A stretch of 64,000 bases of DNA, taken from positions 1-64,000 of the IMG/VR virus record IMGVR_UViG_2654587728_000014; one strand, written 5' to 3'. Source of the stretch: a virus (Duplodnaviria > Heunggongvirae > Uroviricota > Caudoviricetes). Below the pieces are notes generated by a model. That model did no database searches and was not told the origin of the DNA. It was given only the letters and a program-made list of their open reading frames with translations. The stretch's first letter is position 1. Every line of letters starts with the position of its first letter. The position numbers and the translations under genes were made by a program. Of the stretch, positions 2,453 to 22,291 are shown in pieces.

Positions 2453-2964
2453 TGGCTGTACCAAAACATCTTCGCTTTTTTACGCTGTTTGTGGATGGTG
2501 AAAACGAAGTGGGTAAGGTGACGTCCGTCACTCTGCCTAAGCTGACGCGCAAAACCGACAGCTACCGGGGTGGTGGCATGATGGGTGCGGTAAGTATTGA
2601 TCTCGGTCTGGACGACTCCGCGCTTGATGCGAGCTTTGTCATGGGGGGCGCAGTTCGTGAGCTGTTCCTTAAGTATGGCGGCACGATTGACGGCACGCTG
2701 CTGCGTTTTGCGGGTGAATACTACACCGATGCAGAAAGCGATCTGTATGAAATCGAGATGCGCGGACGTGTGACGGAAATTGATATGGGGGAAGCCAAAC
2801 AGGGCGAAGCCACATCACACACTTACGCCATTAAAAACACCTACTACAAGCTGAGTGTTAACGATCGCCCGTTGTGGGAGATTGACCTGCTGAACTTCAT
2901 TTACCGGAAGGACGGCAAGGACATTGTGCCCGATCGCATCCGTTCCGCGCTTGGGCTTGGCTGA
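2452..2964 (+). CDS. FII: P2-like tail tube protein
   Basis: 170 aa directly after sheath gene with ATGA overlap; tube-like sequence. Confidence 0.88.
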   Translation: MAVPKHLRFFTLFVDGENEVGKVTSVTLPKLTRKTDSYRGGGMMGAVSIDLGLDDSALDASFVMGGAVRELFLKYGGTIDGTLLRFAGEYYTDAESDLYEIEMRGRVTEIDMGEAKQGEATSHTYAIKNTYYKLSVNDRPLWEIDLLNFIYRKDGKDIVPDRIRSALGLG

Positions 2965-3018
2965 TAAGTAATATGCAGGCGGCGCAGTGCGCCGCCTCTG
3001 ACTGAAAGGAGTTTCCTG

Positions 3019-3384
3019 ATGAAAGAGACGAAAAACATCGATACCGAAAACACGGTAGTTGCTGACACTGTGAAAGAAACCAGTGAGCGTGGCGTAAAAC
3101 TTACCCAACCAATTGAGCGAGGCGGCGAAAAAATCACGTATGTGGAGATCACCGGGGCTATTGAGCAGGCTGGATCTCTGCGAGATTTGTCGCTGTCTGA
3201 TGTGCTGAATCTGAAAGCGGAATCCATGTTTACGCTGCTGTCACGCGTGACATCACCGCGACTGGATGAAGTGACGATCAAAAAAATGGCATCCCGTGAC
3301 TTTATTCAGTTATGTGTGGTTGCCGTAAATTTTTTGAGCGGTGCGGACTCTGGCGGGAAGAACGAACAGGCGACGGAAGCCTGA
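3019..3384 (+). CDS. E: tail assembly chaperone gpE
   Basis: 121 aa ORF between tube and tape-measure genes; ends ...NFLSGADSGGKNEQATEA. Confidence 0.8.
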   Translation: MKETKNIDTENTVVADTVKETSERGVKLTQPIERGGEKITYVEITGAIEQAGSLRDLSLSDVLNLKAESMFTLLSRVTSPRLDEVTIKKMASRDFIQLCVVAVNFLSGADSGGKNEQATEA

Positions 3385-3548
3385 TCACGGTTGTGTGCTT
3401 TGAGCACATAGAAGACTTTGTGGCAGATATTGCCGTTATTTTTAACTGGTCGCCCGCCGAAATCTTCATGATGACGCCCGGCGAAGTGGTTAGCTGGCGT
3501 GAGCGGGCGGCACTTCGCAGCGGGAATGCAGACAATGAAGACTCTTGA
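3019..3548 (+). CDS. E': gpE+E' extended chaperone made by programmed -1 frameshift at TTTTTTG (3330-3336)
   Basis: slippery heptamer TTTTTTG inside E; the -1 frame continues as ORF 3312..3548 (FFERCGLWREER...NEDS). Confidence 0.65.
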
Positions 3549-4905
3549 TATCCGGGTCGCTTTCAGCGCCGTTGACAGGCTGACCCGACCTGCAGAAAAC
3601 GCACGCCGCCTGATGGGGCAGTTTGGTGACTCCATCCAGCGAACGCAGGGGGCGATCAAAAATCTCGAGCGTCAGGCGCGTTCATTTGAGCGCGCCCGCG
3701 ACGCTGTCAGTAAAGCGGATGCGGGTATCGTGAAAGCACGACGCCAGCTTAACGCCCTTAATCAGTTACAACGCACGGGTACAGTGCTCAGCGAAAAACA
3801 ACAAAAGCTGATGCAGCAGTTAAGCACCCGGCTTGAACGCCTGAATGAATCGCGCACACGGGAGATTCAGAAAATGCGGGAGCTTGGCGGAGAGCTGAAA
3901 CGCCACGGCATTTCCCTGACAGGCAGCGATAACACCATCCAGCAGGCCATCAGACGCACCGAACAGTACAACAACCAGCTTGAACGCGAACGGCAGGCGC
4001 TTGCGCGTGTAACGCGGGCGCGTGAGCGGTATTCGCGCGCGCAGGAAACCGCGGGAAAACTGAAAACAGGTGGTGCACTGGCAACAGGTGCGGCAGCGGC
4101 GGGCGGCTATGCTGCCGGGCGTTTTTTGCAGCCCGCGATTGGGTTCGGGAAAGAGATGTCCCGCGTTCAGGCACTGACGCGAATCGACAAAAACAGCCCA
4201 CAGTTTAAGGCGCTGCGTGAGCAGGCGTTAAAACTTGGCTCTGAAACGCAGTTCACCGCTGGAGATGCCGCCAGTGGACAGGCATTTCTTGCAATGGCTG
4301 GTTTTACTCCGCAGGCCATTCAGGCTGCGTTTCCCGGCGTGCTGAGCATGGCAACGGCTGGCGGTATGGATCTCGGCGAGACGGCGGATATTGGCTCAAA
4401 TATCCTGACGCAGTTCGGCCTCTCTGCTGACCAGATGGACCGGGTTGGCGACACGCTTACAGCGGCGTTTACCCGTACCAACACTGACCTTCGCGCGCTG
4501 GGCGAAACCATGAAATATGCAGGTCCGGTGGCGGGTAAGCTGGGAATATCGCTGGAGCAGGCCGCTGCGATGGCGGGCGTGCTGGCGAATATGGGCATCA
4601 GAGGGAGTGATGCCGGGACGGCAATGCGTGCCAGCCTGGCTCGTCTGGCATCACCGCCAAAGGCGGCAGCAGAGGCGCTGAAAGAGCTGGGTGTGGCTGT
4701 CTCTGACGCGAACGGCAAAATGCGCCCGATGGAGGATGTACTGGCCGACCTTTATAAAGCCACCCGCAAATACGGGGAAGTTGACCGGGTATCGTTCTTT
4801 AAGGACATTGCCGGAGAAGAGGCTTTCACATCGTTTATGGCGCTCGTTGATGCAGCGGGTGACGTGATGCGCCGCGCGATAAATGCACTCTATCTTGTGC
4901 GATAA
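3526..4905 (+). pseudogene. T: P2-like tape measure protein gpT, N-terminal part; native sequence ends about 4864 where a Mu-like end begins
   Basis: ORF 3499..4905 with coiled-coil tape-measure character; last 13 codons (VMRRAINALYLVR) are read from the inserted element. Confidence 0.8.
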
Positions 4906-4940
4906 ATGGCATCCACGCGGCGTTTCATTATTTGAAAAAG
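4865..4940 (+). repeat. Mu-like right-end terminal repeat region (putative transposase-binding sites)
   Basis: TGAT-N9-GATAAATG terminal motif, repeated GCGATAAATG(C/G)CA, then GTTTCATTATTTGAAAAAG; same motif at 10682. Confidence 0.55.
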
Positions 4941-4942
4941 AA

Positions 4943-5515
4943 TTACATTTCAGGTTGCGTTATGACAGTCCCAACAGGGTGATAGCGGTAGATCGTTGAC
5001 AGTCCAATATCATAGATAATTGCCAGCCGCTTTCTGTCATACCCTTTCTGGAGCAATCTTGCGATCTGCTCATGCTGCTCCTTCGTCAGTTTCGGGCGAC
5101 GTCCTCCAACTCTTCCTTGTGCTCGCGCAGCAGCCAGTCCAGCCAGCGTGCGCTCAACTATCAGTTCACGCTCCATTTCTGCCAGTGCACCCATCATATG
5201 AAAAAAGAACCTTCCCATCGGAGTGCTGGTATCGATTGAATCCGTCAGACTGCGAAAATTGACACCTTTTGCGCGTAGCTCTTCTGTGAGAGCAATGAGG
5301 TGTTTCATTCTTCTACCCAACCGATCCAGCTTCCAGACCACCAATGTATCCCCTCTTTTAAGGCACTTTAAAGCGCGTTTCAGGCCTGGTCGTTCCGACT
5401 TGGTTCCGCTCATTTTGTCCTCAAAAATCTGTTCACATCCTGCGCACATTAATGCATTGCGTTGCAAATCTGTGTTTTGGTCATTTGTTGACACACGTAT
5501 GTAGCCAATCAGCAT
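4943..5515 (-). CDS. gin: Gin/Hin/Pin-family serine DNA invertase (invertase 1)
   Basis: 190 aa MLIGYIRVSTNDQNTDLQRNAL...; catalytic Ser motif and C-terminal HTH; AAGGGAG RBS; ORF track 4943..5644 has an upstream non-native extension. Confidence 0.93.
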   Translation of the reverse strand: MLIGYIRVSTNDQNTDLQRNALMCAGCEQIFEDKMSGTKSERPGLKRALKCLKRGDTLVVWKLDRLGRRMKHLIALTEELRAKGVNFRSLTDSIDTSTPMGRFFFHMMGALAEMERELIVERTLAGLAAARAQGRVGGRRPKLTKEQHEQIARLLQKGYDRKRLAIIYDIGLSTIYRYHPVGTVITQPEM

Positions 5516-5569
5516 TAAAAATACTCCCTTTTGAGTGGTTAAAGTACTGAGATAATGTGGGGAGGATTT

Positions 5570-5597
5570 GAGAGATAAACGTTGGTTTGGGAGAAGG
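5570..5597. other. gix-like crossover site A (GAGATAAACGTTGGTTTGGGAGAAGG)
   Basis: matches gix/hix/cix consensus core AAACC-NN-GGTTT; inverted relative to site B at 7984-8011. Confidence 0.6.
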
Positions 5598-6048
5598 TTC
5601 GGCATTACCCGTTGGTGTGCCTGTTCCGTGGCCTTCAGCCACACCGCCTACTGGCTGGCTGAAATGCAACGGTGCGGCTTTTTCTGCTGAAGAATACCCG
5701 GAACTGGCAAAGGTTTATCCGACAAATAAATTGCCGGATTTACGCGGTGAATTTATTCGTGGCTGGGATGACGGACGTGGTGTGGATGCCGGGCGACAAT
5801 TATTATCTTCACAGGGGGATGCAATAAGAAATATTGAGGGATTCGCAGATGGCGGGATCGGTATGTCTTTTGATGCAATCAGAGGGGCTTTTTATGATGC
5901 AGGAACACGATCTGCGAGAATGCCGAATAACACAACTGATATAGGCAAAACCGATGACCTTGGATTCGACGCCTCTCGTGTCGTGCCAACAGCTAATGAA
6001 AACCGTCCACGTAACATCGCCTTTAATTATATTGTGAGGGCTGCATAA
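5587..6048 (+). CDS. tail-fibre variable C-terminal cassette (Sv type), no constant N-terminal part attached in this isomer
   Basis: starts at crossover site with GEGSALPVGVPVPWPSATPPTGWLKCNG, ends ...AFNYIVRAA; homologous to C-termini of S (43887..45341) and H (45962..47611). Confidence 0.75.
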   Translation: MGEGSALPVGVPVPWPSATPPTGWLKCNGAAFSAEEYPELAKVYPTNKLPDLRGEFIRGWDDGRGVDAGRQLLSSQGDAIRNIEGFADGGIGMSFDAIRGAFYDAGTRSARMPNNTTDIGKTDDLGFDASRVVPTANENRPRNIAFNYIVRAA

Positions 6049-7531: not shown

Positions 7532-7565
7532 ATCCCTTTTCGCCGCTTCTCCTAAACCAACGTTT

Positions 7566-8072
7566 CTATGCCGCCCTTACGATGTAATTAAACGCAATGT
7601 TACGGGGACGAATGGTCACATAATTAACCCCATCGCCTCGCGAAGGACCTGCAAATGAAAAACGGGAGAATCCAGGTTGGTTGTCAAGGATTTGGTCATA
7701 GTTATTGATTGAATGACCAGACCCAATGTCAAAATTACCTGCGTAATGAGAAAAACTTGTACCATCCTGCCGTGAAAGCAGATCGCGCCCTGTATCCACT
7801 TTTCGCCCGTCGTCCCATCCACGGATAAACTCACCGCGCAAATCGGGAAGACGGAGGGTCGGGTAGACTCTGGCCAGAACAGGATATTGTTCTTTTGTAA
7901 AGGCGCGCCCGTCGCACTTTAACCAGCCTGCTGGCGGTGTGGCAGTGGGCCACGGAACAGGTACACCAACGGGCAGCGCCGAGCCTTCCCCCAAACCAAC
8001 GTTTTCGTTTTTATCCCTACCTATACCAACTCTGTATTTTTCACGAAACAAAGAGGATGTTTTTTTATGCAA
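7566..8072 (-). CDS. tail-fibre variable C-terminal cassette (Sv' type), promoterless in this isomer
   Basis: LGEGSALPVGVPVPWPTATPPAGWLKCDGRAFTKEQYPVLARVYPTLRLPDLRGEFIRGWDDGRKVDTGR nearly identical to the H segment at 46275-46465. Confidence 0.8.
   Translation of the reverse strand: MHKKTSSLFREKYRVGIGRDKNENVGLGEGSALPVGVPVPWPTATPPAGWLKCDGRAFTKEQYPVLARVYPTLRLPDLRGEFIRGWDDGRKVDTGRDLLSRQDGTSFSHYAGNFDIGSGHSINNYDQILDNQPGFSRFSFAGPSRGDGVNYVTIRPRNIAFNYIVRAA
7984..8011. other. gix-like crossover site B (CCTTCCCCCAAACCAACGTTTTCGTT)
   Basis: about 21/26 identical to reverse complement of site A; lies just upstream of invertase 2. Confidence 0.6.
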
Positions 8073-8666
8073 ATTGGCTATATTCGTGTGTCAACAAATG
8101 ACCAGAACACGGATTTACAACGCAATGCACTGAACTGCGCAGGATGTGAACTGATTTTTGAAGATAAAATCAGCGGAACGAAATCAGCCAGACCGGGATT
8201 GAAAAAACTGCTCAGAACGCTATCAGAAGGAGATACGCTGGTTGTCTGGAAGCTGGACAGACTGGGCAGAAGTATGAAACACCTGATCACGCTTATTGAG
8301 GAATTGCGGGAAAAAGGTGTTAATTTCCGTAGTCTGACGGACAGCATTGACACATCAACACCCATGGGGCGTTTCTTTTTTCACGTCATGGGGGCTTTAG
8401 CCGAAATGGAACGTGAATTAATTGTAGAGCGTACACTGGCCGGGCTGGCAGCAGCACGCGCACAAGGACGCATTGGCGGACGTCGCCCGAAGTTGACAAA
8501 AGAACAACACGAGCAAATAGCGAGGCTGATTAAAAACGGTCATGACAGGAAACAACTGGCGATCATTTACGACATCGGCATATCGACGATTTATCGTTAT
8601 CACCCTGTAGGCGATATACAGGCTGAAGAAACAACCAGGCAGACTCAGGAAAATAAAAACCGCTAA
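8067..8666 (+). CDS. Gin/Hin/Pin-family serine DNA invertase (invertase 2)
   Basis: 199 aa MQIGYIRVSTNDQNTDLQRNAL...; paralog of invertase 1 in inverted orientation. Confidence 0.93.
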   Translation: MQIGYIRVSTNDQNTDLQRNALNCAGCELIFEDKISGTKSARPGLKKLLRTLSEGDTLVVWKLDRLGRSMKHLITLIEELREKGVNFRSLTDSIDTSTPMGRFFFHVMGALAEMERELIVERTLAGLAAARAQGRIGGRRPKLTKEQHEQIARLIKNGHDRKQLAIIYDIGISTIYRYHPVGDIQAEETTRQTQENKNR

Positions 8667-9193: not shown

Positions 9194-10681
9194 TCAATCT
9201 TTATCGTAAAAACTGCCACGCCCGGCACGGGCGCGCCGTTCCATTTCTGCCCTGACCATTTCGCCAATCAGTTTCGCCAGTTCGCGGGGATTCTGTGTAA
9301 CAACGTTATGCAGATGAACATGAATTTCACCGCCAAATCCGGAGGCAACAGGCTCCCGGTTACGGGAAGTTGCAGGAACTGATGCCACTGGCGATCGTAT
9401 AGCCTCCGCCACCGGGCGGGAGCTGGCCGCAACAACAGGGACCAGCGCCGGAGGCAGCGGAGCCGGAACCACGGGTGTGATAGTAATTGCGGGGGCAGGC
9501 TTACTGACCTGCGCAATCTTCCGCTCCTGCCACTCCCCACGAACAGCAAGTGCGCGGGGCAGGTTCTTAAAGACAATATCGCCGGGGCCAATGCGTTTTT
9601 TCGTCTCATCAACCAGCTTACCTGTGTTATCAGCAATTTTGCTGAGTCTGCGTAGCGTACCGGTATTGTTGTCTGTGAGCGGTTTGTTGTCTCTGGGTTT
9701 ATCGCCTTTTTTGTCGTCGACCTTATCTGACGGGGCCGGGCCGGGAGTCCATGGTTTCTGAACCATTTTCTTGAGAACCGGATCCCATTCCCACATTACA
9801 GGAGCCTTTGAAGCGTTCTCTATTTTCTTTCTCGCCCGTTCCGCTTCATCCGGAAGCACTCCGAGCTTTTCAAGTATCCACGCCAGTGAATCCATCAATG
9901 CTTTTGTTGGCGTCAGGACAAGCTCTATCGCTCCACCGAGTACCCTGCCGAATACCTCGCCAGCACTGGTACATTTATCCAGCGTTTCCTTGCTGGACTC
10001 CATCGGTGACAGCAGCGATTTAAACCAGTTAAAGACCTGAATAATCCCATCGCGCACGACATCAAAAACTGGACCGAACCGTTCAAAGGTTTCGCGCAAC
10101 GGAGCCAGCCGTTCCATAATCCCACTGAACACCCCTGCATAAAACGCCTTGATGGGTTCCCAGTATTTCCAGATGAGAACCGCCGCAGCCACAAACGCAG
10201 CAGCAATCAATCCGACCGGGCTGAACAGCGCCCCGATAGCGCCCCCCAGTAACGAAACGGAACCCGTCACCATTCCCCATAGTGCTGGCAGGAGCCTGAC
10301 AGCATTCATTGATCCGGTCAGGAGGGAAAAGCCAAGACGCAGTTTTGCCAGCGGGCCAGCAAGCACACCAATAGCCAACGACAACGAGCCGACCGTTGCA
10401 GTCATCGCCAGCAATGCCCCACCTGCAATCAGTAGCTGGCGCGTCAGTGCCGGATGGGCCTGCGCCAGCGCCGTCACCTTTGATACCACCCGCGTGAGCC
10501 ACTGCGTGACAGAACGCAGCGGACCGTCAATCAGATCTGCAATGCGGATGCGCAACCCTTCCCATGCACTGCCGAGTGATTTCAGATCGCCGTCAAGGTT
10601 GTTGGCCATAACCTTTGCTGTGCGTTCAGCCTCACCGCGCGCGCCTTCAAGTTCTTTTCTCAGTTTGGGTAAGGAGCCGTC
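9194..10681 (-). pseudogene. T: P2-like tape measure protein gpT, C-terminal part (upstream boundary is the Mu-like end at about 10681)
   Basis: ORF 9194..10609 (471 aa) with Gly/Ala-rich hydrophobic tape-measure segment; frame open only to an in-frame stop at 10658-10660. Confidence 0.78.
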
Positions 10682-10845
<164 letters not shown>

Positions 10846-14415: not shown

Positions 14416-14685
14416 TTACCACAAAGATTCCGGCCACACGACGCGACAGCCGTGCAGTTCGAAAACGCCCTGACGGAAATGTCCCCTGTGGTCATGACCG
14501 GTATACAGATAACAGGCCTTTCCCTGCTCAAGCATGCGCATGCAATGCGCACTCCGGGAAACGCGGATGACAGGTTTGTTACCCCTGATGGTGATGCTTT
14601 GTACATCCGTGTTCGTCGCCTTAAGCGCCATAATGGCTGACTGCACTTTGCTGATTTGCTGGTTGATACCTGTGGTGGATTTCAT
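14416..14685 (-). CDS. hypothetical protein (occupies Mu kil position)
   Basis: 89 aa ORF between B and gam. Confidence 0.4.
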   Translation of the reverse strand: MKSTTGINQQISKVQSAIMALKATNTDVQSITIRGNKPVIRVSRSAHCMRMLEQGKACYLYTGHDHRGHFRQGVFELHGCRVVWPESLW

Positions 14686-14687
14686 TA

Positions 14688-15854
14688 TTAAACCCCTTTG
14701 ACAACGTCAGCGTTGACCTGTGGAACCCCGATTTCAGCGGCCAGATTCATGGCGGCTATTACCAGGTTACTGACGGCCAGCGGATACAGCAGGCTGACCA
14801 TATTTTTACGATGACTTCCCGGATTGCTCAGGCGGGCACGTATGGCATCCACTGCGCTGGCGTCCATAATGTCCGTCAGTTGTTTACCGGCCCGTTGCAG
14901 TTTGAACGTCAGAAACTCTTCAAGGTTATTGTCCAGAGGCAGAAGTTCGACCACCTCACAGCGCTGAACGACTTCACGGACTTCCATATTGCGTTCAGAC
15001 AGTTTTGTCGCCAGTTCCGGCTGGCCAATCAGCACGATGGACAGCAGTTTTTTGAAACCGGACTCCAGCTCAAAAAAGCGTTTGAGGTGTTTCAGTGTCG
15101 GAATGGGCAGACTGTGGGCCTCCTCAATCACCAGAACGTGGCTGAACCCCGCCTGGCTGCTGTCTTTCAGGACGCGATGCAACTGGCGAAAGCGGGCGTC
15201 CTGACTGCGTCTGATGCTTTCCAGTGGTGCGATGGTACTGATAATGGCTTCGGCAATCGCTGCTGCCTTCAGGGTTTTCCCTTTCACATCGTTGTCTTCC
15301 ATAGCGATGATGTATGGCTCGATAACAATTACCGGCGCATTCTCGCGGTTGATACGTTCAGTCAGGTCGCGGCGCAGCGTGGATTTACCCGCACCGGACT
15401 CACCGATGACGGCCATAAACCCACCATGACGGGCTGTCTGGTACAACGCCTCACGCACGTAGCGAATATCCGGGGTGGTGAACACATCATCAGAACCCTG
15501 CATGGCTTCGTCGGCGAACGGGTCACGGAAAAGACCAAACGCTTTTTTGGTTGCTGGAAATAACACCTGTTTTTTGAGTAACATATTCTCTTCCTCACTG
15601 AGGCTCGTTTTATCTGTGGTACCCGCTGTACGGGGCGTGGCCGCGCCCTGTACAGCATCAAAACTCTTCGTTGTATCAATCCCCTGACTTTCCAGCCAGG
15701 ACGCAAGACGCCGGCGCACTTCTCCGGGGCTGGTGCGGGGCCACGCGTTATGATTCACAATCTGGGCCAGCGTGGCCTCAGAAACATCGACAGCTCTCGC
15801 CACCACCGCCTGTGGAATACGGGCCTCTTTCAGTTGCTGCTTCAGTACCAGCAT
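14688..15854 (-). CDS. Mu B-like transposition ATPase
   Basis: Walker A AVIGESGAGKST, N-terminal HTH; probable start MLVLKQ after GGAGGG RBS; ORF track 14688..15893. Confidence 0.8.
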   Translation of the reverse strand: MLVLKQQLKEARIPQAVVARAVDVSEATLAQIVNHNAWPRTSPGEVRRRLASWLESQGIDTTKSFDAVQGAATPRTAGTTDKTSLSEEENMLLKKQVLFPATKKAFGLFRDPFADEAMQGSDDVFTTPDIRYVREALYQTARHGGFMAVIGESGAGKSTLRRDLTERINRENAPVIVIEPYIIAMEDNDVKGKTLKAAAIAEAIISTIAPLESIRRSQDARFRQLHRVLKDSSQAGFSHVLVIEEAHSLPIPTLKHLKRFFELESGFKKLLSIVLIGQPELATKLSERNMEVREVVQRCEVVELLPLDNNLEEFLTFKLQRAGKQLTDIMDASAVDAIRARLSNPGSHRKNMVSLLYPLAVSNLVIAAMNLAAEIGVPQVNADVVKGV

Positions 15855-15864
15855 GTTTCCCTCC

Positions 15865-17634
15865 TCAGTTGCCGTTAACAATGCTGATAACACTGCTGCG
15901 GGCCGGTGTGGTCAGCGTGGCCATGACTTCATCCAGTGCGGCTTCCGGTACGCCGTCCGGGTACTGTGCCGTTAACTGGCGGTAATGTTCCGGCGTCCAG
16001 GTAAGGCCGTCGGCGCTGAACTTATCGCGCAGGGCTTTCGCGGCCTCCACATGAGTCATGGGACGTTGTTCAGTGCGCGGCCCGCGTACGTCAGAGGCCT
16101 GACCACGCTTCGGCATATAGGCCGGAAGTGTGGTGTCGTCGATATGTTTATACGGGTCAAGCCGCCCGCCGAACGGCAGCGCCTTCGCCTTGCGTGCGGC
16201 GGCTGCATCTGCGGCGTTGTCTGTACCGGTAACCAGCGCTTCGGTTTCTTTTGCCGCCATCTGTGCCGGGGTTTCCGGCAGGGCTTTGTAACTTTCGCCA
16301 AATACCGCCGCGCCTTCAGCAAAGCCAAACTCGTTCTTTCTGACCTCTTCGACCAGGAAGAACGTCTCGTGGCCGTCCTCACCGGTCAGAACCACCTGTG
16401 CCACATCGCTGCGCCATGGGTTACGGGTAATCATCAGTTTTTCACCAACCAGTACGCCCGGTACCGTTGATACGTCAAATTCAGTGCCCCGGAACGAGAC
16501 ACGAAGTTTTGGCGTGACTTTGCGGAGTTCTGGTGCCGCCACAGCCAGTTCACGACATACCTCAACGGAAGGCGCTTTTTTCAGCTGCTCAGCAGTAATC
16601 TTCAGCCAGATATCCGTGCGGGTTTTACCGTGGCGGCTGTGAACAGCCGTGGCGTTAAAGTGGCTGCGCCATTTCGCGGCCAGCGCGTTGAGTTCTTCCA
16701 GACTGTGAACCGGCCGGAACTTCAGACCCGGCTCCAGCTTGCGTTCGATAATGTCACGCGCCTTTTCCACCTGTCCGGTGGCGCGGGCGTTATGCGGCTT
16801 GTGCGCTATCAGGTCGATGCCCAGTGAGCGGCACATGTTTTTCGTCATACCCGCGGTGTTTGCCGAGCCGGGGTCGAGATAGAGTATTTTCGGCACGCCG
16901 TGCAGCACGTCTGCGCCGCCACGCTCCTGCATGGCGTTGATAAGCACAGAACACAGGTTCTCACCTGATTCCGCGCCCGTCACATACTCAACGTAAATCC
17001 AGCCGCTGGCATGGTCGGTAATCTCGTAACTCCACACGCGGTCACTGGCGATACGGGCAAGGTTAGCGGGCTTGTTCTTGTAGAACTTCGCGCTGTCCAT
17101 CACCTGCAGCCCTTTATGTCCATTGCTCAGGTAGTAAAGCGTGCAGAGTGAGGCGTCAATCTGCCAGACATGATTGGGATGCAGACTGGCCACTTCGGTA
17201 TGTGGTGCAGGGGCATCCAGTTGTTCCGGGTGCAGGCCATAGTTACGCAGAGCACGGCTGATGGCATCTTCAGACAACGGGAAAAACTCACTGGTGGTTT
17301 CATCTGTTCTGCCTGCGGTGATAAAGCCGTTAGCCCGCAGGGTTTCCACTGCATCTGCGATGGAATAGAGACGCTTACCGTTCTTGCGGGTGGCCTCACG
17401 CAGTGTGGCAGATATCAGCGCGGCTTCGTCGCGGGTCAGGGCGCTGCGCCCGGCATCGGCGCGTTTTTTGCGTTTATCAGTCACAGATACCTCCTTCAGC
17501 CTGCGCAGCAGAGTGGCGCGGGACATGCCAAGTTCAGCACAGGCAGCGTCGTATATTGCACCGCGTTTACCATGCCCCGCGTCACGTGCCGCGCGGGCTG
17601 TTTCAACCAGTTTTTCAGTCAGTGCCGGGGTCAT
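15865..17634 (-). CDS. Mu-like DDE transposase (MuA family)
   Basis: 589 aa; large transposase immediately upstream of B-like ATPase; MuA-like N-terminal DNA-binding and core regions. Confidence 0.88.
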   Translation of the reverse strand: MTPALTEKLVETARAARDAGHGKRGAIYDAACAELGMSRATLLRRLKEVSVTDKRKKRADAGRSALTRDEAALISATLREATRKNGKRLYSIADAVETLRANGFITAGRTDETTSEFFPLSEDAISRALRNYGLHPEQLDAPAPHTEVASLHPNHVWQIDASLCTLYYLSNGHKGLQVMDSAKFYKNKPANLARIASDRVWSYEITDHASGWIYVEYVTGAESGENLCSVLINAMQERGGADVLHGVPKILYLDPGSANTAGMTKNMCRSLGIDLIAHKPHNARATGQVEKARDIIERKLEPGLKFRPVHSLEELNALAAKWRSHFNATAVHSRHGKTRTDIWLKITAEQLKKAPSVEVCRELAVAAPELRKVTPKLRVSFRGTEFDVSTVPGVLVGEKLMITRNPWRSDVAQVVLTGEDGHETFFLVEEVRKNEFGFAEGAAVFGESYKALPETPAQMAAKETEALVTGTDNAADAAAARKAKALPFGGRLDPYKHIDDTTLPAYMPKRGQASDVRGPRTEQRPMTHVEAAKALRDKFSADGLTWTPEHYRQLTAQYPDGVPEAALDEVMATLTTPARSSVISIVNGN

Positions 17635-17649
17635 AGCTTGTCTTCCCTG

Positions 17650-17967
17650 TTATCCGATTCTGGCGGCAATTTTTCTGGCGAGGTCGCACAGTGTTTCGCC
17701 ATCGCAGGTTTTCACCACGGTATTTACCGGTTGCGGTGCAACTACCGGGCGTAATGCTGACTGATTCTGCAGACGTCTTATCTGCTGCATCAGCATCACC
17801 TCCATCGTCAGTACAAACGGGTGCGTCTCCTGTGCGGGTACGCAGATTTCACCGGAAGGGGTCACCACGCGGAAACCCTGCACCATCTCCGGCAGCAGAT
17901 TACACAGTGCGTGCCCCAGTGCCTCCGGGCTGTCCATCAGGGTATTTTGTGTGTTATTCGTATTCAT
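17650..17967 (-). CDS. hypothetical protein
   Basis: 105 aa ORF in early operon. Confidence 0.45.
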   Translation of the reverse strand: MNTNNTQNTLMDSPEALGHALCNLLPEMVQGFRVVTPSGEICVPAQETHPFVLTMEVMLMQQIRRLQNQSALRPVVAPQPVNTVVKTCDGETLCDLARKIAARIG

Positions 17968-18887
17968 TACTGCATATCCTCCGGTCGGTTGATTTCAGGT
18001 TCCGGTTCGGTCAGCCAGGCGGGGGCATCGTTACCCGATGGAGCGGCCTCAAGGTCAAACGTCTCACGTAATGCATGAACACTGCGTTCAATCTGGCAGA
18101 CCAGACCGGCCATGAAATCTCTGGGGGTATCGATCATGTTTTTGGTGCAGTATTCACACAGGGTCTCAAAAACACTGGACAGCCGGACGGCGATAGCCGA
18201 TTCGGCCTCAACCGCTAATGCCGTCACTTCCGCCCGCAATTTTTTCAGTTCTTCGTCTGGCGGCGGAGGTTGCAGGCGCGATTTCTTCTCCAGTTTTGTG
18301 GCCAGTTCGTTGATTTTTTCGTCCTTTCCGGCAAGCACCTGTTGCTGAGCTGCGTTGGTTTCGCGCGCTTCACGCAGGGCGGCCTTCAGTTCGCGGCTGG
18401 TCATGCGATCAATATCATCAAGCGTTGCACCGGCGACGGTTCCACCATCAGCTAATGCGTCGAGTTCTTCGTCATCCAGAACCATCAGTTCATATAACTT
18501 GGTTTTTCCCAAAACGCTCAGCGCTGAGCGTTTTGGCTGTTCATCTCCATTGCCGAGAAATTTCACGCTGGCCTGCATCATGCGACGAGCTACCTGTGGT
18601 GCTAATCCGAGGTCGTTTTCCAGAATATTTGTGAAATCACCATGCGGTTCATTTTCTTTTAAGATGATCAGCCGCTTACCCGCTTCCAACATAGATTCAG
18701 CACTCTGCGCCATATAAAAACGTGCTTCGTGAACGATGCGTTCACGTTCATAAGGCAGTCCATCACCAAACTGCTGCATGATCTCCATGCGATGCTGTGT
18801 CATGGCATTCAGGCTGACGTTGAGATCATCCGACAGCGGTACATCGGCGTTCAGTTCAGTGTTAATCGGTGATTTGGTACGTCCCAT
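17967..18887 (-). CDS. hypothetical protein (DUF3102-like)
   Basis: 306 aa, acidic and coiled-coil rich; domain call from memory. Confidence 0.45.
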   Translation of the reverse strand: MGRTKSPINTELNADVPLSDDLNVSLNAMTQHRMEIMQQFGDGLPYERERIVHEARFYMAQSAESMLEAGKRLIILKENEPHGDFTNILENDLGLAPQVARRMMQASVKFLGNGDEQPKRSALSVLGKTKLYELMVLDDEELDALADGGTVAGATLDDIDRMTSRELKAALREARETNAAQQQVLAGKDEKINELATKLEKKSRLQPPPPDEELKKLRAEVTALAVEAESAIAVRLSSVFETLCEYCTKNMIDTPRDFMAGLVCQIERSVHALRETFDLEAAPSGNDAPAWLTEPEPEINRPEDMQ

Positions 18888-18897
18888 TGATTACTCC

Positions 18898-19212
18898 TTA
18901 CAAACGACTACCTGAAATGACACGTTGGTTAATTTCGTTAATACGATCCTGTGCACGTGCCATCTCGTTACTGTGGGCCATGGCGATCTGCAGTAACTGG
19001 ATGCCCGGTGCAAAACGTCCGTTCTCCAGTTTCAGAGCCAGCCCTTCTTCAATGAGGGTGTTGAGTGCCCGGTTGATGTTTGCCGGTGACTCGTGCAGTG
19101 CTGTCGCCAGTTCACCGTTAGAAATACCGTTCAGGGCATGACCGCGCAGCGCTTTGAGTACCCGGAGGATGCGACTGCCGGAGCTTGAAACATTCGTCTT
19201 ACTCATCTGCAT
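18898..19212 (-). CDS. HTH DNA-binding protein
   Basis: 104 aa with winged-helix-like segment ISNGELATALHESPANINRALNTLIEEGLA. Confidence 0.5.
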   Translation of the reverse strand: MQMSKTNVSSSGSRILRVLKALRGHALNGISNGELATALHESPANINRALNTLIEEGLALKLENGRFAPGIQLLQIAMAHSNEMARAQDRINEINQRVISGSRL

Positions 19213-19258
19213 ACCTCTTTTGCGATATGTGATAACCTTTTACAAAGACTCAAAATAT

Positions 19259-19447
19259 TTAGGCCGCCTGAGCTGTTGATTTCAGTCCCAACTTCACGGC
19301 GATTTCATGGGATTTACCGTAACGGGCTTTGGTCTGCCCGTTGAGAACGCGGTATACCTCATTGCGGTTGTAGCCGTTTTCTTCTGCCCAGCGGGTGAAA
19401 GTGATCCCGCGCTGGCGGAAGAGAGCTTTGACTTGTTCTGCAGTCAT
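19259..19447 (-). CDS. ner: Ner-like DNA-binding regulator
   Basis: 62 aa; pattern FRQRGITFTRWAEENGYN...GKSHEIAVKLGL parallels the Ner/Nlp family; divergent from repressor gene. Confidence 0.65.
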   Translation of the reverse strand: MTAEQVKALFRQRGITFTRWAEENGYNRNEVYRVLNGQTKARYGKSHEIAVKLGLKSTAQAA

Positions 19448-19499
19448 CGTTGTCTCCTTTGTTGATGCAATGATGTTTGCCTTATATGTGTTAGATTAT

Positions 19500-19547
19500 T
19501 GCTCATAATTATGAGCATATCAAGATAGAGATTCACTTTTATGAGCA
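19500..19547. promoter_or_regulatory. operator region: perfect palindrome TGCTCATAATTATGAGCA plus extra TTATGAGCA half-site over the repressor start codon
   Basis: seen directly in the ner/repressor divergent intergenic region. Confidence 0.5.
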
Positions 19548-19897
19548 AAGATATAGGAGAGCGCGTTATTTCTGTGAGGAAGAAAGCAGGGTTGAACCAG
19601 AGAGAATTTGCAGCTCGTTTAGGTATTTCTAATGGTGGTATCAGTCAGATTGAAAATGGAAAGGCGATGCCTGGAGGGGAGTTTCTGTTAAAGATGCATC
19701 AAGAGTTTAATGTTGATGTAAATTGGTTGCTCACTGGAATGAGCACAGATGGTATGACTAGAAACCAGAATCAAATTTCCCCAGAAAAACAAAAACTAAT
19801 AGATACTTTTGACGACATGACACCAGACCAACAACGCTCATTTCTTGAGATTGGGCGATTCTATACTCAGCCAAAACCAGGAAAAATCGCAGGCTGA
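19541..19897 (+). CDS. XRE-family HTH repressor (Mu c-like)
   Basis: 118 aa; HTH QREFAARLGISNGGISQIENGK; divergent from ner-transposase operon. Confidence 0.8.
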   Translation: MSKDIGERVISVRKKAGLNQREFAARLGISNGGISQIENGKAMPGGEFLLKMHQEFNVDVNWLLTGMSTDGMTRNQNQISPEKQKLIDTFDDMTPDQQRSFLEIGRFYTQPKPGKIAG

Positions 19898-19983
19898 TAC
19901 TGACCCGGACACAAAGGACAGGTGGTTGATCTGGATGCTTTCAGAAAACATCGCCAGTGACATAGTGGAAGTTGTTTGGTTTA

Positions 19984-20014
19984 CCGGAAAGCATTGTGCT
20001 TTCCGGTTTTGTTT
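19984..20014 (+). terminator. rho-independent terminator after repressor gene
   Basis: hairpin CCGGAAAGCA-TTGT-GCTTTCCGG followed by TTTTGTTT. Confidence 0.6.
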
Positions 20015-20778
20015 CAGAAGTTGCAGATTAGCAGTTCACGGCGCGGCGTGGGTTTACCCGCCAGACTGTAGTTGATATTCACTGTCTGTATGTTCAGTCC
20101 AGTGAACACCTCGCGCATCTGCGGGATGTCGTTCACCGAAATTATCATTTTTCCTCTGATGCACCGGGCCAGCTCTGCCAGCCGCGAGTAGTTCCCTTCA
20201 GGAAAATCCACACCATAGCCTTCCGTACCCAGGTACGGTGGGTCGCAGTAGAACAGCGTGTGCGGACGATCATAACGCTCAATGCACTGTTGCCAGTCCA
20301 TGTGTTCTATGACTGTTCTGGAAAGCCGCAGGTGTGCCGCTGACAGTTCTTCTTCAATACGTAGCAGGTTGAAGCGTGGCGGGGATGTGGTGGAGGTACC
20401 GAAGCTGTGCTCTGCCACCTTGCCGCCAAACGCCTGCTTCTGAAGGTAGTAGAACCGTGCCGCACGCTGGATATCCGTCAGTGTTTCTTCCGGGGTGATC
20501 TGCAGCCATTTGTAGATCTGACGGCTGACCAGCGCCCATTTGAACTGGCGGACAAATTCTTCCAGGTGATGCTTTACCACCCGGTACAGATTCACCAGTT
20601 CACCGTTGATATCATTGATGACTTCGATCTTGCCGGGTGTCTTAAGAAAATAGAGCGCTGCTGCCCCACAAAACGGCTCCACATAACATTCATGCGCCGG
20701 AAACAGCGGCAGAATGTGTTTTGCAAGGCGGCGTTTGCCACCAATCCACGGCACGATGGGTAATGTCTGCATTTTCAT
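20014..20778 (-). CDS. dam: DNA adenine methyltransferase (Dam-like, orphan)
   Basis: about 254 aa; IVPWIGGKRRLAKHILPLFP... and DPPY motif (FYCDPPYLGTEGYG). Confidence 0.85.
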   Translation of the reverse strand: MKMQTLPIVPWIGGKRRLAKHILPLFPAHECYVEPFCGAAALYFLKTPGKIEVINDINGELVNLYRVVKHHLEEFVRQFKWALVSRQIYKWLQITPEETLTDIQRAARFYYLQKQAFGGKVAEHSFGTSTTSPPRFNLLRIEEELSAAHLRLSRTVIEHMDWQQCIERYDRPHTLFYCDPPYLGTEGYGVDFPEGNYSRLAELARCIRGKMIISVNDIPQMREVFTGLNIQTVNINYSLAGKPTPRRELLICNF

Positions 20779-20968
20779 AATCTGCAAGCCTTTTACAATT
20801 ATTAAAAAATATGGCAGTCTGGTCAGGTCTCGCGAGACTGACTGAACCTTGGTCGGCTCACAGCGCATTCCTGTGGGGCGATGACCAGCCCGGCTTTCGG
20901 GTGCCGGGCTGGTCGTTCTTTCATGATGCGGCAGGGATGGCGGGATTTCTGTTAATGTGGTTTAGGGA

Positions 20969-21184
20969 TTATCCGGGGCGATTTTCTGACCTTATCCGGT
21001 CCAGGGCATAAGTAATACCTTCTGCAAAAACAGAAGTATCAAACTGCTTTTGTATTCCCTGAAAATGAAAAGCGGCACGACAGACACTCAGTTCTCCGCG
21101 GTATAACCGGATAATATCTTCCAGAACATTGTTCACTGCTTCAGCACGGCGCTGATGTTCTGTTAACGTTAATCGGGGATTCAT
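20969..21184 (-). CDS. hypothetical protein
   Basis: 71 aa with strong AAGGAG RBS 6 nt upstream of ATG. Confidence 0.45.
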   Translation of the reverse strand: MNPRLTLTEHQRRAEAVNNVLEDIIRLYRGELSVCRAAFHFQGIQKQFDTSVFAEGITYALDRIRSENRPG

Positions 21185-21587
21185 GATGCACTCCTTAAAT
21201 GATGATTTTTATGTACTCACCGGCAAAATATTCTGCCGATTACTGAACACGCATCCGGCACCTCAGGTTTTGATTTATTCTGGTTTTTTCGATATCCCGG
21301 ACCAGGTTGATCACGACCAGAAAAAGTGCCGGTGTTTTATTGATACGCTGATATGGCTTCGGGATAACAGCTATATTCGTTACTCTCAGTTGCTGGCTGT
21401 GGGAGCGGCTGATGTCGTCCTCACGGAAAAAACGCTCTGTCTGCTCAATGCCATGCCGACCTTTCTGCAGCCCCGGCCCGTACCATTTAAAGAGTCACTT
21501 CTGGATGCAGTAAAAACCGGTGAAAATGCAGTCATCGCTGAATGCGTATCCCGGATTATGCGTTACGTGTTTAATGAACGTAAGTGA
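21183..21587 (+). CDS. hypothetical protein
   Basis: 134 aa; start codon overlaps the divergent 71-aa ORF start; weak GGGGA RBS. Confidence 0.35.
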   Translation: MMHSLNDDFYVLTGKIFCRLLNTHPAPQVLIYSGFFDIPDQVDHDQKKCRCFIDTLIWLRDNSYIRYSQLLAVGAADVVLTEKTLCLLNAMPTFLQPRPVPFKESLLDAVKTGENAVIAECVSRIMRYVFNERK

Positions 21588-22291
21588 GGTTTATCCGCTG
21601 TCTGCATAATCCCGATAGCCAGTGCGAGGGGAAGTAATTCCGGGGAAACTCTTTCAAACAGCGATGCCCATTCTCCTCTCGCCATCACTCTGTCCAGCCC
21701 GCCCTCCAGTTGCATTTCAGCAATCTTCCTGATTTCCCGGAACAACGCCGCTTTGATCTCTTCATGCTCAGCTTTATTTTCCGGTGTCAGAAGGTATTCG
21801 TCGAAGAACCGGGGAGGCTGGTTAATCGGGATGTGTTCCTGTTTGCCGTACTTCGGGGACGAACAACATTCTGTTGACTGACCAGTGAGTTTACGTAACT
21901 CCTTCATGAGCAGCTCCTGATCGTAAACTGTCATCAGTGCCGCAATGGTGGCATGCAGTGCATCGGGCAGTATCCAGGGTTGCCGGCCCGTGGGGCATAT
22001 AACATCCAGCAGCTCATTCGTCCGACAGATACGCTCCTCGCCGTATGACAACAGGCCCTGTCCCGTGTATTCCTCCAGCCTGATCACTGTGCCAGCCCGT
22101 GGTTTCTGCCATGTGCTCAGATCATCCCCACTCATACGGCGCTCACCGTCCACGTCTGCGGCGTCGACAATGACGCTGTTTCCGAATTCCTGTTTCACCA
22201 CTTCCTCTATTCGCGCCAGTACGTAACTTTTACCGCTGCCCACAGGACCGGACACGGTGACAGTGATGACCGGATTCAGTGTCTGCGTCAT
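21563..22291 (-). CDS. P-loop NTPase of unknown function
   Basis: 242 aa; N-terminal Walker A VSGPVGSGKSYVL; no recognisable second domain. Confidence 0.55.
   Translation of the reverse strand: MTQTLNPVITVTVSGPVGSGKSYVLARIEEVVKQEFGNSVIVDAADVDGERRMSGDDLSTWQKPRAGTVIRLEEYTGQGLLSYGEERICRTNELLDVICPTGRQPWILPDALHATIAALMTVYDQELLMKELRKLTGQSTECCSSPKYGKQEHIPINQPPRFFDEYLLTPENKAEHEEIKAALFREIRKIAEMQLEGGLDRVMARGEWASLFERVSPELLPLALAIGIMQTADKPHLRSLNT

Follow-up and report, generated by a model that had tools for sequence, protein, structure and literature searches.

Genes preceding the transposase in the early operon of a BcepMu-like Escherichia coli prophage

Three minus-strand ORFs in the 64,000-nucleotide stretch of viral DNA analyzed here (the window) are BcepMu-like early-operon genes. 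In the preferred reading, with a probability of about 0.75, their products would be early DNA-binding or adaptor factors acting on or alongside the transposition-replication machinery, and the genes are not lineage-specific additions. The ORFs encode a 104-aa winged-helix protein, an acidic 306-aa protein of the DUF3102 family, and a 105-aa protein. From comparison of sequences, the first two genes are regarded as fixed core genes of the BcepMu-like module, and the third as an optional family gene that is a recurrent occupant of one slot, not a one-off insertion. The genes are already known, with annotations in hundreds of E. coli genomes and one deposited phage; their counterparts have figured as conserved hypotheticals ever since the annotation of BcepMu and B3, and the finding as stated is ordinary. 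It brings into view two proteins that invariably accompany a widespread phage transposase, in a prophage family that ∼12% of the complete E. coli genomes carry. Should these partners be transposition cofactors, they would represent a second way of organizing a Mu-like transpososome, unlike the single multidomain MuA.

The element was identified as a BcepMu-like (Bcepmuvirus, PhiKM-type) transposable E. coli prophage, not Mu. It showed 99.8% nucleotide identity to Escherichia phage PhiKM, which is classified as Bcepmuvirus, and the 2.1-kb stretch with the three genes had matches in 636 of 5,426 complete E. coli genomes. TG...CA termini are a feature of BcepMu-like transposable phages (PMC2628397), and such termini were found here together with a short target-site duplication. 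The left end begins TGATTAG at 10684, and the right end, reading inward, begins TGATGCG from 4865; the duplication (C)GTCAC occupies 10678-10683, and its reverse complement 4859-4864. The gene content also agreed with a BcepMu-like module: a gp16-family HTH gene comes first, and gp12-like and gp10-like genes lie immediately 5' of A. The latter encodes a BcepMu/B3-type DDE transposase of 589 aa (15865..17634, minus strand; Pfam rve, phrog_310), and is followed by the gene for an AAA_22 ATPase (Pfam) at the position of MuB (14688..15893, minus strand; 388 aa from the RefSeq start, 401 aa as the longest ORF).

The earlier note had placed three same-strand ORFs of 104, 306, and 105 aa between ner and the transposase gene, and the ORF coordinates confirmed exactly this placement. 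The winged-helix gene (18898..19212), the DUF3102 gene (17967..18887), and the 105-aa gene (17650..17967) all lie on the minus strand between a gene for a 62-aa HTH protein (19259..19447, minus strand) and the transposase gene. Their packing is operon-like, with intergenic gaps of 46 nt between the 62-aa and 104-aa genes, 10 nt between the 104-aa and 306-aa genes, and 15 nt between the 105-aa gene and the transposase ATG. The stop of the 306-aa gene and the start of the 105-aa gene overlap in a shared TAATG, and a Shine-Dalgarno-like sequence was found at every start of the three genes. An early-promoter-like site of sigma-70-like form (TTGATA-17-AATAAT; 19495..19523, minus strand) lies 5' of the 62-aa gene, between it and the divergent gene for a 118-aa XRE/cI-type repressor (19541..19897, plus strand; Pfam HTH_3 and Phage_CI_repr). 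Its spacer contains a perfect 18-bp palindrome, TGCTCATAATTATGAGCA (19500-19517), which is a probable operator. In the homologous operon of the B3-like phage Fc02, the pE transcript begins at ner on induction and spans these genes, and most ORFs except A, B, gemA, and mor are unassigned (PMC9936078). Gene adjacency alone is no proof of functional coupling.

Two of the ORFs are small, and this is all that would speak for one or more of the three being a chance reading frame, a reading whose probability we consider negligible. All three gave full-length PHROG matches and are under purifying selection, with dN/dS values against diverged E. coli alleles ranging from 0.02 to 0.31 (0.02 to 0.04 for the 104-aa gene, 0.16 to 0.22 for the 306-aa gene, and 0.22 to 0.31 for the 105-aa gene). 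Their homologues span Beta- and Gammaproteobacteria, and RefSeq annotates them in hundreds of genomes.

The three genes had been called extra because Mu was used as the reference, which is the wrong yardstick for a BcepMu-like element. In Mu, A (1328-3319) does directly follow ner (1099-1326), as had been noted. The transposase of the element, however, showed no similarity to MuA by BLASTP (E 0.48), while being 67 to 68% identical to the transposases of BcepMu and phiE255. Only the generic rve domain was recognized by Pfam; the nearest NCBIfam models, IS481 and IS21, were below cut-off, and the alignment to the 696-position phrog_310 profile began only at position 130. Likewise, the 62-aa protein (phrog_925) matched TIGR04111 (BcepMu_gp16) with an E value of 3e-28 and 97 bits against a cut-off of 34, whereas its score against the Mu Ner family HTH_35 (PF13693) was 17.9 bits, below the cut-off of 25. 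It was therefore assigned to the BcepMu gp16 family at the ner position, not to the Mu Ner family, and its earlier designation as ner was not borne out. The likeness to the Mu early operon is by functional analogy only and consists of a divergent repressor, a small HTH first gene, and a transposase with an ATPase partner. A difference is that the winged helix is here a separate gene product, whereas MuA carries its own winged-helix domain.

To place the genes within their clade, 80 species-representative loci collected with a transposase alignment were surveyed. A DUF3102-like gene was found immediately 5' of A in 80/80 loci, usually with a gap of 1 to 17 nt and with a gap of ≤60 nt in at least 68, and the winged-helix gene preceded it in 75 of the 77 loci with enough upstream DNA. 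The clade order was a gp16-like HTH gene, variable small genes, a winged-helix gene of ∼100 aa, a DUF3102-type gene of ∼300 to 330 aa, optionally a phrog_5446 gene, A, and the AAA+ gene B. The same winged-helix/DUF3102/transposase order was seen in BcepMu, phiE255, B3, JBD25, phiSHP3, and KP12. In a phage collection, the transposase occurred in 69 records, the DUF3102 type of the upstream gene in 32, and its JBD25 gp15 type in a different 37; the matching counts and the coincidence of the listed names suggest that a DUF3102-like gene lies upstream of A in all 69.

Among the named relatives, BcepMu (gp12/gp10) and phiE255 (gp42/gp41) have both core genes in this order, immediately ahead of a transposase and a B protein of the same type. 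B3 has ORF14 and ORF13 at the same positions of its early (pE) operon, with 56% and 46 to 48% identity to the window proteins, respectively. The 306-aa protein showed 38.8% identity to BcepMu gp10 and 55.5% to phiE255 gp41 (tblastn), and BcepMu gp12 showed 33% identity to the 104-aa protein. Accordingly, the 104-aa protein is assigned as an orthologue of BcepMu gp12, B3 ORF14, and phiE255 gp42, and the 306-aa protein as an orthologue of BcepMu gp10, B3 ORF13, and phiE255 gp41. BcepMu differs in having a small gene, gp11, between gp12 and gp10 and in lacking the 105-aa slot gene. The JBD25/Fc02 group has gp16 and gp15 at the same positions of the pE operon. In this group, ner and the winged-helix gene are separated by more small genes, the slot gene is absent, and gp15 keeps only the C-terminal part (about 115 to 125 aa, 35 to 48% identity), joined to a different N-domain with a weak HTH_28 match. 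The closest relatives were Klebsiella phage KP12 and E. coli prophages, for example the one in strain AVS0744, with transposases 93% and 99 to 100% identical to that of the element, respectively. Their winged-helix proteins were 89 to 92% identical, and the DUF3102 protein about 74% identical overall in KP12. Their repressors were different (20 to 27% identity). In both, the 105-aa gene was absent and the DUF3102 stop was 3 nt from the transposase start.

If the three genes were lineage-specific additions to a Mu-type early operon, forming an extra layer of control, one could point to Mu with A directly after ner and to the presence or absence of the 105-aa gene among close relatives. However, the winged-helix and DUF3102 genes are universal within the clade, neither the transposase nor the ner-position protein is a Mu homologue, and the 105-aa family recurs at the same slot in divergent prophages. 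This reading is largely refuted by the synteny survey, and we consider it highly improbable. Of the three genes, only the 105-aa gene is facultative. The earlier note had also raised the prospect that all three might prove universal in the clade with a known routine function; universality was found for two, and a known routine function was not found.

The winged-helix gene product (phrog_1368, E 5e-45) bore out its earlier description as an HTH protein, with HTH_IclR (26 bits against a cut-off of 22) and HTH_24 both above Pfam cut-offs. RefSeq and PhiKM use its second ATG, at 19206, giving 102 aa. The protein could be aligned to its counterparts from six reference phages, and the family profile matched MarR/IclR winged-helix domains in the PDB (E 6e-6). 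The C-terminal effector-binding domain of IclR proteins, which are ∼250 aa long, was not found by Pfam in this protein of only 102 to 104 aa. It is therefore seen as a stand-alone winged helix with a C-terminal helix, and the "IclR family" label in PhiKM overstates the relationship. With a pI of 10.7, this basic protein would be expected to bind DNA as a small MarR-like regulator.

The DUF3102 gene product (phrog_1748, E 1e-143) passed the PF11300 gathering threshold marginally (27.0 bits against 24.4, residues 65 to 173). The assignment was backed by RefSeq naming and by structural matches in BFVD (E 1.6e-4), where only other uncharacterized DUF3102 proteins were found. It had been described as acidic and coiled-coil, in agreement with its pI of 4.74 and with long helices at residues 164 to 202 and 210 to 249 that form a coiled-coil-like pair in the AlphaFold2 model (AF2; pLDDT 71.9; domains at ∼90 to 96 in this and the 105-aa model, both of fair quality). 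Since searches for homologues with the window protein or a seven-phage profile returned only Enterobacterales sequences of at least 73% identity, the alignment depth for this model was obtained via BcepMu gp10 as the query. In domain order, a helical N-domain with an HTH-like motif (residues about 20 to 111) is followed by a variable linker, the helix pair, and a conserved C-terminal helix. The protein may thus be modular, consisting of an HTH-like domain, long helices that probably oligomerize, and a C-terminal domain. No match for it was found in the PDB by phmmer and profile searches, and Foldseek against the PDB gave nothing significant for either the DUF3102 or the 105-aa model (best E 0.88 and 0.4, respectively). 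NCBIfam was also uninformative. In the papers found to mention "DUF3102," no title or abstract addresses function, and for BcepMu gp10, Beetrevirus, and BcepMu-like prophages the literature search brought up nothing beyond annotation tables and the RNA-seq paper on Fc02.

The DUF3102 gene contains a hypervariable segment (18400..18663, minus strand; residues about 85 to 165), covering the HTH recognition helix and linker, which was only 50 to 67% identical between E. coli prophages whose flanks were 96 to 99% identical. The recognition-helix alleles thus vary among near-identical prophages. The variable positions may be read as DNA contacting, although an acidic N-domain (pI 5.1) is atypical for DNA binding. 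Exchange of this domain was also evident between phiE255 and BcepMu, which share 96% identity in A, 99% in B, 84% in the winged helix, and 89% in the DUF3102 C-domain but only 35% in the N-domain, BcepMu gp10 having a different N-domain allele (33 to 35% identity). The C-domain was common to the compared phages even where the N-domain was swapped.

Among the phages and prophages compared, the HTH allele showed no covariation with repressor, winged-helix protein, A, or the gene at the ner position. PhiKM and AVS0744 share 93% identity in the DUF3102 N-domain and 92% in the winged helix, against 27% in the repressor. The window and AVS0744 have one HTH allele and unrelated repressors, NRZ14408 and KP12 have another allele in common, and a third type is that of GF60. 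As no covariation partner was found, no target can be assigned to the allele.

The regulatory role proposed earlier, or one in DNA binding, is plausible, with a MarR/IclR-type winged helix and an HTH-like motif in two of the three proteins. In a rival reading, the winged-helix and DUF3102 proteins would be pure transcription regulators of lysis-lysogeny or of the early-to-middle switch with no direct role in transposition, their location before A reflecting merely the order of the early operon. Examples of such a regulator are a second repressor or an activator of the early, repressor, or Mor promoters. In addition to the HTH-type motifs of both proteins, this reading is favored by stand-alone DUF3102 proteins of phage-plasmids, encoded just 5' of a Mor-family activator. 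Further stand-alone DUF3102 proteins are encoded on Lactobacillus plasmids, beside a primase. Both kinds share the N-terminal domain (27 to 42 bits against PF11300), but their C-terminal parts differ and no transposase is nearby. The N-domain is therefore not transposition specific. The regulator reading is also favored by a cII-like activator in the same stretch of B3 and by D3112, in which ner is separated from A by an unrelated "transcriptional regulator." Against it stand the very tight link to the transposase start (80/80 loci, usually a 1- to 17-nt gap), the sharing of the C-domain between phages despite the N-domain swap, and the fact that the HTH allele does not follow the repressor or operator type. 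The link is also kept with a second transposase type in Burkholderia phage KS10, whose gp15 is DUF3102-like (hhalign probability 96%, E 3e-9, residues 45 to 239) and is flanked by a gp16-like small HTH gene on one side and A on the other. KS10 differs in having no winged-helix gene and a longer gp15 (350 aa), and its transposase is reported to have little homology to that of BcepMu and 30% identity to that of D3112 (PMC2628397). A purely transcriptional role therefore seems unlikely, though it is a possibility to be taken seriously.

Under the preferred reading, the two core proteins, joined by the slot protein in phages that encode it, would be early factors working on, or side by side with, the machinery of transposition-replication. 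They would either assist in assembling A/B on phage DNA or directing A/B to it, or tune early transcription. In MuA, an N-terminal winged-helix domain (I-alpha) binds the enhancer/operator, and this type of domain covaries with the repressor in Mu and D108. Homology to MuA was rejected for both the winged helix (MuA residues 1 to 251) and the DUF3102 protein, each with an hhalign probability of 0.3%. An analogy to domain I-alpha tied to immunity was rejected as well, since the DUF3102 HTH and winged-helix alleles do not track the repressor. A more specific proposal is that the two core proteins and the optional slot protein make up an accessory complex coupled to the transposase, which would supply in trans the site-specific DNA-binding, enhancer/end-organizing function that MuA has in cis. 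The exchangeable HTH recognition helix of the DUF3102 protein would then set the phage DNA on which A/B act, with the slot protein as a modulator; this is speculative, and we hold it to be distinctly improbable. For experiments, the HTH alleles and the recurring slot gene are concrete starting points.

The 105-aa slot gene product matched phrog_5446 with an E value of 1e-73 over 105/105 positions. It consists of a conserved N-terminal alpha-beta-beta-alpha domain (residues about 11 to 70) and a variable tail (AF2 pLDDT 78.2), and residues D12, S13, L17, A20, L21, G31, F32, F51, and L59 were invariant in 21 sequences of the family. Sequence and profile searches of the PDB gave no match, and no DNA-binding signature was found. 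Absent from KP12, the closest phage, the gene is probably also missing from roughly one in three related E. coli prophages. It was present in 9/80 surveyed loci, always between the DUF3102-like gene and A. Five distant metagenomic homologues of 87 to 254 aa, with roughly 35 to 55% identity over the N-terminal domain, occupied the same slot in 5/5 cases, overlapping the end of a DUF3102-like gene and abutting the transposase gene.

Its facultative presence, the C-terminal tail varying from 20 to 230 aa on a conserved N-domain, and the lack of a DNA-binding signature would fit a moron-type accessory (superinfection exclusion, anti-defense, or host takeover) using a permissive, well-expressed site and not acting as a partner of its neighbors. 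In Fc02, the neighboring early gene 10 has exclusion activity (PMC9936078). Such a role is nevertheless rather doubtful. PADLOC defense models gave no match to the 105-aa protein and only weak generic matches to the other two, although these models cover defense systems only, and an anti-defense role would be compatible with this result. The family was located only at this slot in every case checked (5/5 metagenomic and 9 genome loci). Moreover, the slot gene begins within or right next to the 3' end of the DUF3102 gene, suggesting translational coupling, and in several relatives the 3' end of the slot gene overlaps the start of A.

The three co-oriented genes that the earlier note had placed between a small HTH gene, its "ner," and the transposase were all found there. 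They belong to a minus-strand run comprising a 62-aa ORF (19259-19447), the 104-aa (18898-19212), 306-aa (17967-18887), and 105-aa (17650-17967) ORFs, the 589-aa transposase A (15865-17634), and B, a 401-aa ATPase ORF (14688-15893), from which a 118-aa XRE-type repressor gene (19541-19897) diverges. The description of the proteins as a 104-aa HTH protein and an acidic 306-aa coiled-coil protein was accurate by Pfam, a pI of 4.74, and the long helices of an AF2 model. The ORF spacing is that of an operon: gaps of 46 and 10 nt separate the 62-aa from the 104-aa gene and the 104-aa from the 306-aa gene, the 306-aa stop overlaps the 105-aa start as TAATG, the transposase ATG lies 15 nt from the 105-aa gene, and every start in the run has a Shine-Dalgarno-like sequence. 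In RefSeq and in the near-identical Escherichia phage PhiKM, the 104-aa gene is annotated from its second ATG (19206; 102 aa), and B, whose longest ORF shares 29 nt with the end of A, is started 13 codons later (388 aa).

The sole sigma-70-like site in the region (TTGATA-17-AATAAT, 19523-19495) lies upstream of the 62-aa gene, and the spacer of this early promoter contains a perfect 18-bp palindrome, TGCTCATAATTATGAGCA (19500-19517). Together with an extra TTATGAGCA half-site over the repressor start codon (19539-19547), the palindrome probably constitutes an operator; in related prophages whose repressors differ, another palindrome takes its place, e.g., ATACACAAATGTGTAT in E. coli NRZ14408. 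In the B3-like phage Fc02, RNA-seq showed that the pE operon turns on from ner after induction, and most of its ORFs besides A, B, gemA, and mor were stated to be unassigned (PMC9936078). The region from the repressor to the lysis genes (19541-22291) holds a DNA adenine methylase gene (20014-20868, minus strand) and three more uncharacterized ORFs (20969-21184, 21183-21587, and 21563-22291). It varies among related prophages, with other genes beside the repressors of KP12 and the E. coli AVS0744 prophage.

Window positions 14600 to 20000 were 99.8% identical to PhiKM, a Bcepmuvirus. The transposase, in which Pfam detected only a generic rve domain, was 67 to 68% identical to those of Burkholderia phages BcepMu and phiE255 and about 56% identical to that of Pseudomonas phage B3, whereas BLAST found no similarity to MuA (E value of 0.48). 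The 62-aa protein belongs to the BcepMu gp16 family (TIGR04111, 97 bits against a cutoff of 34) and scored below the Pfam threshold for the Ner family, HTH_35. Therefore, Mu is an analogue and the wrong reference, even though A (1328-3319) does directly follow ner (1099-1326) there, as the earlier note had said. Three unrelated ORFs lie between ner and A in D3112. In KS10, whose transposase has, according to its authors, little homology to that of BcepMu and 30% identity to that of D3112 (PMC2628397), a DUF3102-like gene lies between a gp16-like gene and the transposase (hhalign probability of 96%, E value of 3e-9). An empty ner-A junction is therefore absent from D3112, KS10, and the BcepMu/B3-type phages.

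A common order was observed in annotated phage genomes, namely, a small HTH gene, variable genes, a winged-helix gene of ∼100 aa, a gene for a protein of ∼300 to 325 aa, the transposase, and B. The winged-helix gene and the ∼300-aa gene are gp12 and gp10 in BcepMu, gp42 and gp41 in phiE255, ORF14 and ORF13 in B3, gp16 and gp15 in JBD25, 286 and 287 in KP12, and orf18 and orf17 in phiSHP3, and all seven versions of each protein aligned over their full length. Within the phage collection, 69 records carried this transposase type; the 306-aa protein was found in 32 of them and the JBD25 gp15 subtype, which shares with it only the C-terminal part (about 115 to 125 residues, 35 to 48% identity), in 37 others, the two sets summing to 69 with coinciding listed names. 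The survey was extended to 80 species-representative genome loci with this transposase (54 to 94% identity), drawn from Enterobacterales, Pseudomonadales, Burkholderiales, Neisseriales, and other taxa, whose upstream ORFs were searched. All 80 loci had a DUF3102-like gene immediately upstream of A, although two counted only when ambiguous bases were tolerated; the gap was ≤60 nt in at least 68, and a winged-helix gene preceded it in 75 of the 77 loci with enough upstream DNA. The winged-helix and DUF3102 genes are thus core members of the clade. The earlier note had called the three genes extra; the synteny comparison it proposed, run on the phage genomes and these 80 loci, showed that two occur throughout the clade and that the other, the 105-aa gene, is a recurrent optional member. 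All three were already known and annotated.

The phage records containing the 105-aa gene were limited to PhiKM, and the closest phage, KP12, lacks it. A 2.1-kb query, from the 5' end of the transposase gene to the 62-aa gene, was matched by 636 of 5,426 complete E. coli genomes, 410 of them at ≥80% query coverage (391 at ≥99% identity). About 226 genomes matched at 80 to 90% identity, and the sampled rows, with ∼78% coverage in two pieces, suggest that the 105-aa gene is missing there; in AVS0744, the one strain checked, 3 nt separate the DUF3102 stop from the transposase start. When 1.84 billion representative proteins were searched exhaustively with phmmer, just 27 relatives (87 to 290 aa) were recovered, with a common domain of ∼60 residues at or near the N terminus and tails of very unequal length. 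All five relatives with retrieved context (87, 100, 108, 249, and 254 aa) occupied the same slot, abutting or overlapping the transposase start; in four, the first 8 nt coincided with the end of a DUF3102-like gene, and for the fifth the upstream ORF ended 4 nt before its start. The family filled the slot in 9/80 survey loci. Given this recurrence in one slot, the 105-aa gene is a facultative, position-specific module member rather than a random insertion. One of the nine homologues, in Klebsiella sp. WOUb02 (3474-4211 of locus L088), apparently carries a frameshift at the 5' end. The DUF3102-like ORF upstream of it is shortened to 278 aa, and that prophage may have a decaying module. The N-terminal domain of the 105-aa protein was modeled by AF2 with a pLDDT of about 96 (helix 14-28, hairpin 32-43, helix 45-72); no significant match was found in the PDB and no family in Pfam, NCBIfam, or PADLOC.

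The basic 104-aa protein (pI 10.7) exceeded the Pfam cutoffs for HTH_IclR and HTH_24, and its family profile matched winged-helix domains of the MarR and IclR types in solved structures (E values of 6e-6 to 1e-3). With ∼100 residues there is no room for an IclR effector domain; the protein is a winged helix that stands alone, followed by a C-terminal helix. For the 306-aa protein, the domain search also proposed in the earlier note gave a marginal PF11300 (DUF3102) match, barely passing the threshold (27.0 versus 24.4 bits, residues 65-173). Its AF2 model (109 sequences, mean pLDDT of 71.9) was all-helical. The N-domain (20-111, pLDDT 82 to 91) ends in a pair of helices (84-92 and 97-111) that were interpreted as a helix-turn-helix. 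After a linker modeled with low confidence (112-160) come long helices at 164-202 and 210-249 and then one more at 256-276, the pLDDT being about 90 over residues 220 to 280. No solved structure resembled the model (best Foldseek E value of 0.88), sequence searches of solved structures were empty, and BFVD matches were limited to other uncharacterized DUF3102 proteins.

A module-by-module identity matrix revealed reassortment within the DUF3102 gene. Between phiE255 and BcepMu, identities were 96% for A, 99% for B, 84% for the winged helix, 89% for the DUF3102 C-domain, and 77% for the repressor but 35% for the N-domain, a clean exchange of domains within a single gene (gp41, 5001-5918 of locus L004, versus BcepMu gp10, 4992-5945 of locus L002). 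Between PhiKM and AVS0744, they were 97 to 100% for A, 92% for the winged helix, 76% for the C-domain, 93% for the N-domain, and 27% for the repressor. Among E. coli prophages bearing the slot gene, divergence centered on residues ∼85 to 165 (HTH recognition helix and linker), a segment 50 to 67% identical in nucleotides within flanking DNA of 96 to 99% identity. At least three recognition-helix alleles were present (APQVARRMMQAS, HVRAAQRMMKAS, and SKRTAQVMMQAS), with most differences in the first half of the helix and a common ...MM.AS motif. Such variation was taken to be what HTH proteins recognizing different DNA targets would show, with a putative split of helix positions into exposed and core. 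The alleles did not covary with the repressor, ner-position gene, winged-helix protein, or A in the prophages compared, and comparison with the early genes allowed no target to be assigned. An immunity-linked stand-in for the operator/enhancer-binding domain of MuA was rejected, as the HTH allele does not track the repressor and hhalign to MuA was negative; a stand-in not tied to the repressor is possible but unsupported.

When diverged alleles from E. coli strains GF60 and NRZ14408 served as the two references, dN/dS was 0.02 to 0.04 for the winged-helix gene, 0.16 to 0.22 for the DUF3102 gene, 0.22 to 0.31 for the 105-aa gene, and 0.05 to 0.18 for the 62-aa gene, which places all three intervening genes under purifying selection. 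No paper mentioning "DUF3102" addressed its function in the title or abstract, and no paper giving a function was found for the winged-helix, DUF3102, or 105-aa proteins. The DUF3102 N-domain also occurs without a transposase nearby, upstream of a Mor-family activator in SSU5-like phage-plasmids and beside a primase in Lactobacillus plasmids, and is therefore a general mobile-element module. Two IncFIB/IncFIC phage-plasmids (L010 and L012, both 4899-5630) encode a 243-aa DUF3102 protein, a small ORF, and a Mor-family activator, followed by tail genes; the site before this activator is a second recurrent context of the domain. The features specific to transposable phages are the invariant place relative to the transposase start and the C-terminal domain kept across N-domain swaps. 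The N-domain probably binds DNA, although it is itself acidic (pI 5.1), which is a caveat. On the favored reading, early DNA-binding or adaptor proteins are encoded by the winged-helix and DUF3102 genes and would act with the transposition-replication module, or on its expression, and the slot protein would be their optional partner. A purely transcriptional rather than transposition-linked mechanism could equally be proposed and is possible, if somewhat doubtful; a transposase-cofactor complex that acts in trans and whose specificity helix is exchangeable seems distinctly improbable. The interpretation in the earlier note is partly supported: regulatory or DNA-binding proteins are plausible, but additions to the operon are not.

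The BcepMu-like prophage interrupts a tail tape-measure gene that belongs to a second prophage (3499-4864 and 9194-10684). It has proper TG ends and a 5- to 6-bp duplication, with the left junction, (c)gtcac/TGATTAG, at 10683/10684, and the right junction at 4858-4865 in inverted orientation, carrying the reverse complement of the same duplication. The 10683/10684 junction was found in no complete E. coli genome of the collection. The two tape-measure gene halves face each other, implying that a block of ∼40 kb (about 5775-46485) has been inverted. The right end and the invertase gene lie about 40 kb away, inverted, which suggests that a large inversion joined the invertible tail-fiber regions of both prophages. 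Gin/Pin-type invertase regions, two in number and related (4943-5515, minus strand, and 7546-8608), matched the region of strain 4/1-1 at 95% and 84%. Relative to that strain, the segment 44872-46485 is flipped. Tail-fiber segments are repeated at 5579-5774, 7773-8004, 44872-45101, and 46266-46485, and these, with the invertase regions, are likely substrates of the large inversion.
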